Below are positions 44,674 to 46,002 of a stretch of 64,000 nucleotides of DNA, one piece after another. Position numbers and translations under genes: made by a program. Position 1 is the first letter of the stretch, and every line of letters begins with the position of its first letter. This DNA comes from Polyangiaceae bacterium (GTDB taxonomy: Bacteria; Myxococcota_A; Polyangia; Polyangiales; Polyangiaceae), in NCBI GenBank assembly GCA_044224495.1, contig JBGAKG010000005.1, forward strand, positions 108,711-172,710. Direction: 5' to 3'. The notes beneath the pieces are model-generated. The model saw only the letters and a list, made by a program, of their open reading frames with translations, had not been told where the DNA came from and ran no database searches.

Positions 44674-46002
44674 CTACGGTTCAGGGTGAGTTGCTCGGTT
44701 TCGTTCGTAATCGGAGAGGATCGCGACTTGCGCCGCGGACTGGATGCAGCGTGGGTTCAGGCTGCGGACGGCGTCGATCGCCTCGCGGGCCGAGGCGCCG
44801 CCGTGCACCAACTGGCAGGCGAGCATCGTCCCCGTCCGTCCGAGCCCCGCGCGACAGTGCAGCGCTACGACCTCGCCGCGGGCCATCCGCGCGGCGAGAT
44901 CGCGGCAGAAGTCGCGCGCCGCCGAGAGCTCGGGCACGCCCATGTCGGGGATCGGAAAATGGAGCGAGGCGATCGCGTGCGAAGCGAGGAGCTCGGCCTC
45001 GACGGTGGGTGACTCCTCGAGCGTGACGAGCGTCGTCACGCCGAGCCGCGCGAGGCTCGCGACGTCCGTCTCGGTGTCGGCGACGCCGACGCCGGGGCGG
45101 GGGAGACCCCCGAGGCGCCCCGGGACGACCCAGAAGAAGCCGCGCGGGGCAGCCGCCGGCGGCGGATGAACGCTCGGGATCGTGCGCACGGTGCCCGGCG
45201 CGAGGTCTTCGCTCCGCGCGCTCGGGCTGGGCTCGATCGTGCCGCCCGTTCGCACGAAGCGACGCCCGCTGTCCGTGCCCGGCTCCCGGAAGAAGCGCGT
45301 GACGGGCGAGCGCTCCACGACGCCACCGCCGGCGAGCAACGCGACGAACCCGCCCGCCGCGCGCGCGTGGCGCTGGTTGTGCGTAACGAGCAGCACCGCG
45401 CGCTGGTACGACTGCGCGCGGAGCAGGGCGAGCACGCCGACCGCATCGTCGTCCGAGAGCCCCGCGGTGGGCTCGTCCGCGAGGAGGAGCGCAGGGTCGC
45501 TCGCGATCGCGCGCACGATCGCGCGCCGGCGCTGGATGGCGGTCGGCAGAGACGCGACGTCGTCGCCGAGGCGATCGGCGAGCTCGGCGAGGCCGTTCGC
45601 GCGGAGGAGGTCCGTGATCACGCGCCGCTGCGCCGCGAGGTCGAGGCTGGAGCGGTTGGGGAGCGCGCCGGCGAGGTTCCGGCGCACGTCGTCGAGGAAG
45701 AAGCGCGCGTGCTGGGTGACGATGCCGACGTCGCGCCGCACGGCTCCGGCCGCGGGCGGGCGCGTCGTCGCCAGATCGATCCCCGCAACGCGACCGACGC
45801 CCCACGTGGTGAACTCGGGGTGCGTGTCGTTGAAGCCGGCGAGCGTTCGGAGGAGGGTCGACTTGCCCGCGCCCGCCGGCCCGACGAGCGTCGTCAGGCC
45901 GTGCCGCTCGAGCACGAGGTCCACGCTCCCGAGGACGGTCTGCGAGCCGAACGCGGCACCGAAGCCGCGGAGCTCCAGCGCGAGATCACCGATCACGCGC
46001 AT
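44674..46002 (-). CDS. ABC-type ATPase (degenerate signature) fused to dual-specificity protein phosphatase
   Basis: Walker A GPAGAGKST, Walker B LLLADEPTAGLSDDD, H-loop VTHNQ, with LSGGQ replaced by LPTAIQRR. The C-terminus carries the CX5R PTP loop VALHCRAGLGRTG. Confidence 0.7.
   Translation of the reverse strand: MRVIGDLALELRGFGAAFGSQTVLGSVDLVLERHGLTTLVGPAGAGKSTLLRTLAGFNDTHPEFTTWGVGRVAGIDLATTRPPAAGAVRRDVGIVTQHARFFLDDVRRNLAGALPNRSSLDLAAQRRVITDLLRANGLAELADRLGDDVASLPTAIQRRRAIVRAIASDPALLLADEPTAGLSDDDAVGVLALLRAQSYQRAVLLVTHNQRHARAAGGFVALLAGGGVVERSPVTRFFREPGTDSGRRFVRTGGTIEPSPSARSEDLAPGTVRTIPSVHPPPAAAPRGFFWVVPGRLGGLPRPGVGVADTETDVASLARLGVTTLVTLEESPTVEAELLASHAIASLHFPIPDMGVPELSAARDFCRDLAARMARGEVVALHCRAGLGRTGTMLACQLVHGGASAREAIDAVRSLNPRCIQSAAQVAILSDYERNRATHPEP

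Follow-up and report, generated by a model that had tools for sequence, protein, structure and literature searches.

Analysis of a 64,000-nt stretch of a Polyangiaceae genome (contig JBGAKG010000005.1, positions 108,711 to 172,710; hereafter the window) revealed that a single gene joins a PstB-like ABC-type ATPase to a Cys-based phosphatase, and that this fusion occurs across bacterial phyla next to a divergent Roadblock-fold protein and in a small-GTPase setting. The fusion is probably a new regulator of small-GTPase switches. In our preferred reading, to which we assign a probability of about 0.5, it would be soluble and serve a GTPase/Roadblock switch as an ATP-gated protein phosphatase subunit, with a predicted ATP cycle and a protein substrate; the same estimate jointly covers the proposal that the fusion and its Roadblock partner form an accessory of MglA-like GTPase/Roadblock switch cassettes.

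Gene and domain architecture

The minus-strand reading frame starts with ATG, contains no internal stop codon and encodes 442 amino acids, in which the ATPase and a DUSP23/VHZ-like phosphatase are separated by a linker of about 35 residues. The AF2 model of the fusion reached a pLDDT of 87.7 and a pTM of 0.71.

44674..46002 (-): whole gene, ABC-type ATPase plus Cys-based phosphatase; one ORF, both domains detected by Pfam, at least 120 homologues built alike
45247..45984 (-): PstB-like nucleotide-binding domain (NBD), residues 7-252, including the C-terminal motif FFxxPxxxxGRxFVRTGG; by TIGR00972 and Foldseek
45139..45240 (-): Pro/Ala-rich, disordered linker, residues ~255-288; AF2 pLDDT 55-61
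44689..45147 (-): DUSP23/VHZ-like Cys phosphatase domain, residues 286-438; by PTP-SAK and PDB matches

The linker varies between 15 and 136 aa among family members (median 35), and its disorder together with this variable length fits a tethered catalytic head. That two adjacent genes were merged through a frameshift or an assembly error can be dismissed, since the frame is unbroken, the identical protein is present in an independent assembly (Logan SRR28480385), and hundreds of independent homologues are full-length and equal in length; the single-gene fusion of the original prediction is thus genuine, and the check for a frameshift or two separate genes came out clean. A tblastn search with all cassette proteins against the window detected no second copy of the fusion, the sole internal match being the paralogue pair Rbl134/Rbl134' described below.

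Family breadth and variants

At least 120 full-length homologues with 48-61% identity were found, the best 120 all having the same architecture. At E<=1e-30 the family comprises about 436 clusters (50% identity), the best 150 of which all cover both domains, and it extends over Myxococcota, Planctomycetota, Acidobacteriota and Pseudomonadota. The architecture defines a broad, conserved bacterial family, and the earlier description of such a fusion as uncommon was wrong, given this number of clusters in at least four phyla. The annotation of the architecture is generic only, homologues being labelled 'ATP-binding cassette domain-containing protein' or 'atypical dual specificity phosphatase', and a literature search, including the supplements of PMC4316618, returned no paper on the fusion or on its 134-aa partner. 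The nearest relatives of the window proteins come from Labilithrix, Kofleriaceae and Polyangiaceae MAGs, and cultured carriers of the family exist (Parathalassolituus penaei, Extensimonas soli and Planctomycetales strain 10988), which makes the hypothesis directly testable.

Longer variants show a tandem NBD-pseudoNBD-DSP arrangement, in which the second ABC domain is dead and likewise without signature, and one variant, a single cluster representative, carries a Hanks-type protein kinase at its N-terminus, which links the module to protein phosphorylation. Apart from this one kinase, the N-terminal extensions of long relatives contained no Pfam domain; they showed no BLAST similarity to any cassette protein of the window, and an hhalign comparison of the P0270 N-terminus with the Rbl134 profile was not significant. 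Motif conservation was counted over 240 family members. Locus L022 was disregarded, as a stretch of its phosphatase half is masked or garbled.

The phosphatase domain and its substrate class

Residues 286-410 match the Pfam model PTP-SAK (PF22784; E 3.8e-20, 72.9 bits against a cutoff of 27), and further Pfam matches in this half were obtained for Tc-R-P (PF22785), DSPc, CDKN3 and Y_phosphatase. Matches to solved structures comprised the DSP-family protein 25xa (E 5e-24 to 5e-25), DUSP23 (E 1.7e-17 to 8e-17) and SsoPTP (E 2.6e-11). Besides a score above the gathering threshold, the domain has the HCX5R(S/T) P-loop, the general-acid Asp loop and the Q-loop Gln of atypical DSPs.

44833..44859 (-): PTP P-loop H382CRAGLGRT390; Cys383 and Arg389 each in 239 of 240 members
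44944-44946 (-): general acid Asp353 (PIPDMG), in 239 of 240 members
44728-44730 (-): Gln425, in 240 of 240 members

Reading positions 44833-44859 of the window back by hand returned HCRAGLGRT, as expected from the catalytic loop H382CRAGLGRTG, and Gln421 is present in 233 of the 240 members.

The closest solved relatives of the domain, by a wide margin, are DUSP23/VHZ and archaeal PTPs, which are protein phosphatases; CX5R phosphatases of this size class are also known to have lipids, nucleotides and RNA ends among their substrates. The substrate could be a small molecule or lipid instead of a protein, for example a phosphoinositide-like lipid, a nucleotide (GTP, GDP or (p)ppGpp), polyphosphate, an inositol phosphate-type ligand written simply as inositol, or the 5' end of an RNA, which the ABC domain would deliver or sense. 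Consistent with such a substrate, PTEN, PRL and Cdc14 appeared among the weaker sequence matches, the P-loop pattern HCxAGxGRTG also occurs in PTEN, some relatives gave a faint Pfam PTPlike_phytase match, and the myxobacterial cassette holds a second, metal-dependent phosphoesterase. Moreover, the minimal proteobacterial cassettes contain no protein kinase gene, so that a phosphoprotein substrate would there need a kinase encoded elsewhere. However, the protein phosphatases are nearest by far, the P-loop is missing the basic residues of the PTEN type, and one relative is itself fused to a Hanks-type protein kinase. We thus consider a non-protein substrate unlikely, yet the most serious competitor to the protein substrate of the preferred reading.

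A PstB-like ATPase domain without signature motif

The N-terminal half is covered by Pfam ABC_tran (PF00005) at residues 26-180 (E 2.6e-17, 64.1 bits against a cutoff of 25). The top NCBIfam match of the fusion is PstB (TIGR00972; 113.3 bits, E 1e-32), a score that fails the equivalog cutoff of 343.2 bits. In Foldseek comparisons the ABC domain matched PstB and other NBDs with TM values of 0.85-0.89, the best match being E. coli PstB (9k3x_C; TM 0.89, rmsd 2.2), and by sequence the ABC half matched a solved PstB structure with E 3e-18. As the best NCBIfam match, the best structural match and a PstB-like C-terminal motif kept across phyla within the family coincide, the domain appears to be derived from PstB.

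Walker A, Q-loop, Walker B with its Glu, H-loop and the NBD fold itself are all present, and of the ABC superfamily features only the LSGGQ signature (C-loop) is missing.

45856..45882 (-): Walker A, G41PAGAGKST49; Lys47 in 239 of 240 members
45526..45549 (-): degenerate signature position L152PTAIQRR159, replacing LSGGQxQR; aligned to BSEP
45472..45489 (-): Walker B and catalytic Glu, LLLAD176E177; Asp and Glu each in 240 of 240 members
45379..45381 (-): H-loop His208 (T207H208), in 240 of 240 members

Gln97 of the Q-loop is likewise invariant (240/240), and an aromatic A-loop residue is found in 214 of the 240 members. In the HMMER alignment, L152PTAIQRR is placed opposite MSGGQKQR of BSEP; none of the 240 members has the SGG of LSGGQ, and positions 153-156 are variable. 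A degenerate signature amid otherwise intact ABC motifs, as originally described for this one protein, thus holds true family-wide, and the conservation pattern indicates that the ATPase residues are under strong selection in the family.

Normally, a second ABC domain supplies the LSGGQ signature that closes the ATP site in trans; lacking it, the ATPase may perhaps be very slow or a mere ATP sensor, but the invariance of the catalytic Glu and His favours hydrolysis over a role as sensor only. For ABC mechanists the family would represent a natural experiment, as it kept every hydrolytic residue over long evolution and dropped a signature motif supposedly indispensable for hydrolysis. A more far-reaching, tentative interpretation would see here ABC engines of a new class, whose lost signature is replaced by a non-ABC partner: the ultra-conserved Roadblock dimer or the MglA-like GTPase would dock where the ATP site lies open, and hydrolysis would be directly coupled to the GTPase cycle and to the tethered phosphatase. 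If true, this would reveal an unrecognised, phylum-spanning layer of ATP- and phosphorylation-dependent regulators for bacterial Ras-like GTPases; in the extreme form of this interpretation, the ABC domain would phosphorylate its partner. We regard it as a minority option beside the ATP-gated phosphatase of the preferred reading.

It is improbable that the domain is still a transporter ATPase, that is, a PstB paralogue energising an importer, of phosphate or something else, whose genes lie elsewhere, or one partner of a heterodimer with a canonical NBD, the phosphatase being a regulatory appendage. PstB is indeed the nearest family by sequence and fold, and intact Walker A/B and H-loop motifs next to a deviant signature are what one half of an asymmetric ABC heterodimer would show, a pattern known from CFTR, TAP and TM287/288. 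However, no permease genes were found in the window or in cassettes L001, L002 and L084-L086, and the window cassette and these same loci likewise lack genes for a binding protein or a second NBD; what recurs next to the fusion are Roadblock and GTPase genes. In addition, the score of 113 bits falls far short of the equivalog cutoff of 343, the signature is gone in all 240 members, and the dead second NBD of the tandem variants cannot supply one either. With no accompanying permease genes, a non-transporter role is the better reading, and in this part the original proposal that no canonical transporter dimer is formed stands. Taken to mean that the ATPase does not dimerise, the proposal is too strong, as the tandem NBD-pseudoNBD-DSP variants suggest that two ABC domains still work together, though not as an LSGGQ-closed pair.

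Just as doubtful is the idea that the ABC domain is no hydrolase but a P-loop phosphotransferase, which, its signature face being open, phosphorylates a docked Roadblock partner or GTPase while the fused phosphatase reverses the reaction in a self-contained kinase/phosphatase cycle. This would accommodate hydrolytic residues that remain invariant despite loss of the trans-acting signature, the missing kinase gene of the minimal proteobacterial cassette, and an extremely conserved Roadblock partner in which several Ser, Thr, Tyr and His residues are invariant; P-loop protein kinases do exist, HprK/P being the precedent. Against it, we know of no ABC-fold protein kinase, the catalytic Glu and the H-loop His serve water-mediated hydrolysis, and one relative brings its own Hanks kinase.

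The Roadblock partner and the small-GTPase cassette

The fusion gene lies within a same-strand cassette of the following further genes:

47279..48373 (-): conserved 364-aa protein, first gene of the cassette; no Pfam match
45993..47300 (-): PATAN/DUF4388-like protein, ~435 aa; DUF4388 E 7e-5, just under the gathering score
44255..44659 (-): Rbl134, divergent Roadblock/LC7-fold protein of 134 aa; begins 14 nt downstream of the fusion gene
43837..44241 (-): Rbl134', Rbl134 paralogue, 134 aa from an internal ATG (the listed ORF starts at 44289)
42296..43888 (-): calcineurin-like metallophosphoesterase with an N-terminal extension of ~280 aa, start codon uncertain; Metallophos_2 E 1e-16
40811..42292 (-): MglA-family small GTPase with a C-terminal extension of ~300 aa; 3t12_A match, Arf Pfam

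Rbl134 adjoins the fusion gene in 18 of 22 compared loci from four phyla, directly downstream in 16 of them, and with 57-85% identity across phyla it is more conserved than the fusion itself. Its Roadblock assignment is one of fold, as the Pfam Robl_LC7 model fails to detect it and none of its 3427 clusters has a Pfam match: a Foldseek search with the AF2 model retrieved Roadblock 3kye and MglB 1j3w/3t12 (TM ~0.7, E 1e-7). The protein constitutes a distinct, Pfam-invisible Roadblock subfamily with an enlarged alpha2. From the gene adjacency, we infer that Rbl134 is an obligate partner of the fusion and would contact its ABC domain. An obligate Roadblock-fold partner did not feature in the original prediction. 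The paralogue Rbl134' shares 36% identity with Rbl134, and both are present in the Myxococcota cassettes L001, L084, L085 and L086.

Residues 8-191 of the GTPase match Thermus thermophilus MglA (3t12_A, E 1.3e-25), and an MglA-like GTPase is conserved in cassettes L001, L013, L019 and L084-L086. The metallophosphoesterase gene is a conserved member of the cassette as well, and homologues of the 364-aa protein occur in L001, L003, L005, L017 and L020. The stop of the PATAN/DUF4388-like gene overlaps the start of the fusion by 10 nt, and in L001 and L002 homologues of this gene immediately precede the fusion. Proteobacterial cassettes encode an unknown protein of ~200 aa, then a small GTPase, then Roadblock proteins, with bona fide Robl_LC7 genes following Rbl134. 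For this ~200-aa protein and for a 282-aa protein upstream of the fusion in a Planctomycetales locus, PATAN-likeness was not significant by hhalign, the aligned stretch being the expected one in each case. The GTPase operon described at the outset is hence real, and the small-GTPase setting is conserved across phyla.

This setting also bears on membership in a conflict, toxin or anti-phage system, suggested by the top Pfam phosphatase models PF22784 and PF22785 (PTP-SAK and Tc-R-P, which were defined in such systems) and by weak PADLOC matches (mad3, E 1e-13; AriA and HEC-01A, ~1e-3). We rejected a defence function as highly improbable because the PADLOC matches of the fusion span generic P-loop/ABC segments only, none of the six neighbours matches PADLOC, the fusion is surrounded by MglA, Roadblock, PATAN and LuxR-type regulators, and the cassette is syntenic, strongly conserved, vertically distributed across phyla and equipped with an ultra-conserved partner, unlike fast-evolving conflict loci.

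Proposed mechanism

In the ATP-gated phosphatase reading, the ABC domains would form an ATP-driven clamp or timer, homodimeric in the present protein and built from an NBD and a pseudoNBD in the longer relatives, and the Roadblock partner or a further cassette protein would take part in their closure in place of the canonical signature motif. The ATP cycle would set the time and place of phosphate removal by the tethered phosphatase, with the GTPase, a Roadblock protein and the PATAN protein as candidate phosphoprotein substrates, and Ser/Thr/Tyr phosphorylation would thereby be coupled to the GTPase switch. Domain architecture, conserved motifs, the fold of Rbl134 and the recurring gene neighbourhood are established; dimerisation, docking partner, protein substrate and direction of regulation are those we infer for such a subunit. 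The function as a regulatory NTPase-phosphatase that was initially put forward fits the small-GTPase operon setting kept across phyla.

Comparison with known systems

PstB, the ATPase of the E. coli phosphate importer PstSCAB (9k3x, 9k3s), is the best family and fold match of the fusion and has in common with it Walker A, Q-loop, Walker B with Glu, H-loop and the C-terminal 'F..P......F..TG' tail. In contrast, the fusion family lost LSGGQ, scores far under the equivalog cutoff and gained a C-terminal phosphatase, and the fusion gene has no pstSCA or other permease genes nearby. The minimal Cys-phosphatase fold of ~150 aa is also that of DUSP23/VHZ, SsoPTP, a Thermococcus PTP and 25xa; HCxAGxGRTGT, the IPD general-acid loop and the Q-loop glutamines recur in these enzymes, yet they stand alone, whereas the domain described here is tethered to an ABC ATPase in a GTPase cassette.

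ABC NBDs that work as a regulatory or mechanical engine without a pump are found in PhnK/PhnL (C-P lyase), SufC, MlaF-MlaB and FtsE, several of them among the fold matches of the fusion; to our knowledge, all of these retain a canonical LSGGQ and lack a fused phosphatase. A deviant signature is tolerated in CFTR, TAP1/2 and TM287/288, of which the tandem NBD-pseudoNBD variants are reminiscent. These proteins, however, retain one consensus site with a canonical signature, while in the fusion family neither NBD has one.

Bacterial Ras-like GTPases (MglA, conservons) serve as models in research on cell polarity and on how eukaryotic GTPase/Roadblock/Ragulator signalling arose; GAPs and GEFs are the regulators known for them, and we are not aware of any ATP-driven or phosphatase component described for them. 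As in the cassette, genes for an MglA-family GTPase and Roadblock-fold proteins lie together in the MglA-MglB polarity switch of Myxococcus and Thermus (with MglC, RomR/RomX and RomY), for which we know of no ATPase-phosphatase. The cassette GTPase differs by its 300-aa extension, and its Roadblock partner by belonging to a Pfam-invisible subfamily with enlarged alpha2. An association with PATAN is likewise common to both; it was reportedly noted by Makarova in 2006. It was also noted by Wuichet and Sogaard-Andersen in 2014 (PMC4316618). In the actinobacterial conservons (CvnA-D) and the 'Group 3 MglA systems' (PMC4316618), conserved operons bring together, as here, an MglA-like GTPase with one or two Roadblock proteins and a signalling protein that uses ATP, and the proteobacterial fusion cassettes resemble Group 3 in layout. 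Their ATP-using component is a histidine kinase or absent, in contrast to the fusion, and no ABC-phosphatase was reported in that study (PMC4316618). The conserved pair of ABC-phosphatase and Roadblock protein, present in hundreds of lineages from four phyla, would add a new input layer of ATP and protein phosphorylation to GTPase switches.

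Domain architecture and distribution of the ABC-phosphatase

Pfam analysis of the 442-aa product, encoded by a single ORF (44674-46002, minus strand), located an ABC_tran match (residues 26-180, E 2.6e-17) and a Cys-phosphatase domain (residues 286-410) that matched PTP-SAK (E 3.8e-20) and also Tc-R-P, DSPc, CDKN3 and Y_phosphatase. All motifs quoted in the original prediction were confirmed by alignment to a canonical nucleotide-binding domain (NBD) and DNA read-back. The fusion gene (from its ATG) and the upstream gene (up to its stop) share 10 nt, and the downstream gene begins 14 nt past the fusion stop, which embeds the gene in a tight operon. 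An identical protein is present in an independent assembly, and the best 120 database matches (423-482 aa, 48-61% identity) all carry both domains; together with the single ORF, these observations bear out a genuine conserved fusion, and an artefact reading is refuted.

The expectation that such a fusion is uncommon did not hold. An exhaustive search of 1.84 billion 50%-identity cluster representatives returned 436 matches at E<=1e-30, the best 150 of which all span both domains, and a scan of species-representative genomes found full-length copies in four phyla: Myxococcota (Kofleriaceae, Polyangiaceae), Planctomycetota (Planctomycetales bacterium 10988, complete genome), Acidobacteriota (Thermoanaerobaculia) and Pseudomonadota (Gallionella, Sideroxyarcus, Thioalkalispiraceae, Agitococcus, Fluviicoccus, Comamonadaceae, and the cultured Parathalassolituus penaei and Extensimonas soli). 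The homologues bear generic automatic database names only.

The AF2 model (pLDDT 87.7, pTM 0.71) comprises the NBD (residues 7-252), a low-confidence linker (~255-288) and the phosphatase domain (289-438), and no solved chain among the structural matches covers both domains. The phosphatase domain is nearest to DUSP23/VHZ, the unnamed DSP-family structure 25xa and archaeal PTPs, with PTEN, PRL and Cdc14 being far weaker matches. Across the family the linker measures 15-136 residues (median 35), which fits a flexible tether.

Conservation of active sites and longer relatives

Table. Motifs of the fusion and their conservation in 240 aligned members (119 of these 50%-identity representatives)
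Walker A: G41PAGAGKST; Lys 239/240
Q-loop: Q97; Gln 240/240
Signature position: L152PTAIQRR instead of LSGGQxQR; SGG 0/240, positions variable
Walker B: LLLAD176E177; Asp and catalytic Glu 240/240
H-loop: T207H208; His 240/240
A-loop: aromatic 214/240
PTP loop: H382CRAGLGRTG; Cys383 239/240, Arg389 239/240
Phosphatase general acid: Asp353 239/240
Phosphatase Gln425: 240/240

The near-invariance of the ATPase and phosphatase residues, a pattern that recurs in the cross-phylum loci, indicates that both active sites are maintained. As the residues for hydrolysis are retained beyond those for binding alone, the alignment argues that ATP turnover is likely to matter even without LSGGQ.

Among the best 150 representatives, about 15 exceed the single-NBD type in length, with a competent signature-less NBD followed by a second NBD, in which Walker A, Q-loop and H-loop are lost and the signature is absent too, and then the phosphatase (among them P0270, P0271, P0276, P0282, P0283, P0285, P0304, P0321, P0329, P0331, P0342 and P0353). 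N-terminal extensions of 400-1100 aa without any Pfam domain are frequent in the long relatives. The duplication and subsequent degeneration of the NBD suggests, at sequence level, that the working unit may be a pair of NBDs; in single-NBD proteins such as the window fusion the pair would be a homodimer, its ATP site being closed by something other than LSGGQ. One representative, P0324 (1456 aa), carries an N-terminal Hanks-type Ser/Thr/Tyr protein kinase before NBD-pseudoNBD-phosphatase, a fusion of the Rosetta-stone type that hints at a role of the module in protein phosphorylation. A non-protein substrate for the phosphatase is a plausible rival reading, of low probability.

Gene cassettes and the Rbl134 partner

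Table. Myxococcota cassette, strictly conserved in the window and the homologous loci L001, L084, L085 and L086 (window coordinates)
Gene 1: LuxR-type regulator
Gene 2: ~360-aa unknown protein
Gene 3: PATAN/DUF4388-like protein, ~430 aa
Gene 4: ABC-phosphatase
Gene 5: 44255-44659, minus strand, Rbl134, 134-aa Roadblock-fold partner
Gene 6: 43837-44241, minus strand, Rbl134 paralogue
Gene 7: 42296-43888, minus strand, metallophosphoesterase
Gene 8: 40811-42292, minus strand, MglA-family GTPase with C-terminal extension

In tblastn searches with the window neighbours, Rbl134 adjoined the fusion in 18 of 22 loci (directly downstream in 16), and its cross-phylum identity over these loci (57-85%) exceeds that of the fusion (32-59%). 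Clustering at 90% identity gives 3427 database clusters, almost all of them of exactly 134 aa and all "hypothetical"; none has a Pfam match, and no Pfam or NCBIfam model covers Rbl134. Its AF2 model (pLDDT 84) shows an enlarged alpha2 and TM ~0.7 to Roadblock/LC7, MglB, MglC and Ragulator subunits. This 134-aa family deserves a family definition of its own.

The Pseudomonadota cassette consists of a ~200-aa unknown protein, a small GTPase (ATP_bind_1-type), the ABC-phosphatase, Rbl134 and 1-2 bona fide Robl_LC7 genes. Its conserved opener (8231-8836 in L018; homologues in L006-L009 and L015) has no Pfam match; the alignment shows an invariant WPN..RLP motif and a helix-turn-helix-like C-terminal stretch. 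In Planctomycetales bacterium 10988 (L004), a 282-aa protein (9150-9998) lies directly upstream of the fusion; its N-terminus resembles PATAN/DUF4388 by eye, with hhalign not significant.

The metallophosphoesterase has ~280 N-terminal residues without a Pfam match, and its true start is probably further downstream, as the listed one gives a 52-nt overlap with the preceding gene. The ~300-aa GTPase extension (residues ~200-493) contains no Pfam domain and is kept in related cassettes, where the GTPases measure 450-689 aa. Further features of the window are:

48460-49551 and 49661-50722, minus strand: paralogous PAS + LuxR/GerE regulators, directly upstream of the cassette
38014-40359, plus strand: UvrD/Rep-type helicase gene (781 aa), convergent on the cassette 3' end, probably unrelated
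56425-57711, minus strand: BamB-like PQQ beta-propeller protein, upstream
59188-62115, minus strand: 975-aa sulfatase + HEAT-repeat protein, upstream
50839-52224 and 53649-55358: among several large in-between ORFs without Pfam match

A GerE regulator of similar type also lies ahead of the cassette in L001, L084, L085 and L086, and is thus a candidate for controlling the transcription of the cassette. Owing to very high G+C content, many long spurious ORFs cover real genes on both strands between 40000 and 50000 (e.g. 41051-43969, plus strand, 972 aa), and ORF length by itself is no guide there.

Interpretation and comparison with known systems

The best-supported reading makes the fusion a soluble protein phosphatase, gated by ATP, that would serve as a subunit of an MglA-like GTPase/Roadblock switch together with an Rbl134 dimer, with which it may dock. 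The analysis establishes the architecture, the conservation, the fold of the partner and the synteny, and the dimer, the docking partner, the class of substrate and the logic of regulation are inferred. No permease or binding-protein gene lies near the fusion in the window cassette or the compared cassettes, and a cryptic transporter NBD is unlikely. The reading as an ABC-fold phosphotransferase that works with a phosphatase of its own is speculative, and a conflict system was rejected (PADLOC negative). Every domain is of a known kind, and a literature search returned no paper in which a signature-less PstB-derived ATPase is joined to a VHZ-like phosphatase and accompanied, in GTPase cassettes, by an obligate Roadblock partner that Pfam does not recognise.

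The Pseudomonadota layout is similar to the Group 3 MglA systems described by Wuichet & Sogaard-Andersen (PMC4316618), a paper that does not mention the ABC-phosphatase, and the ~200-aa opener may correspond to their "conserved unknown". In structure, the NBD comes closest to E. coli PstB (TM 0.89, rmsd 2.2 Å), and a PstB-like C-terminal motif (FFxxPxxxxGRxFVRTGG) is kept across phyla. PstB is also the top NCBIfam model, yet its score of 113 bits falls far short of the cutoff (343); the domain derives from PstB but is not itself a PstB.
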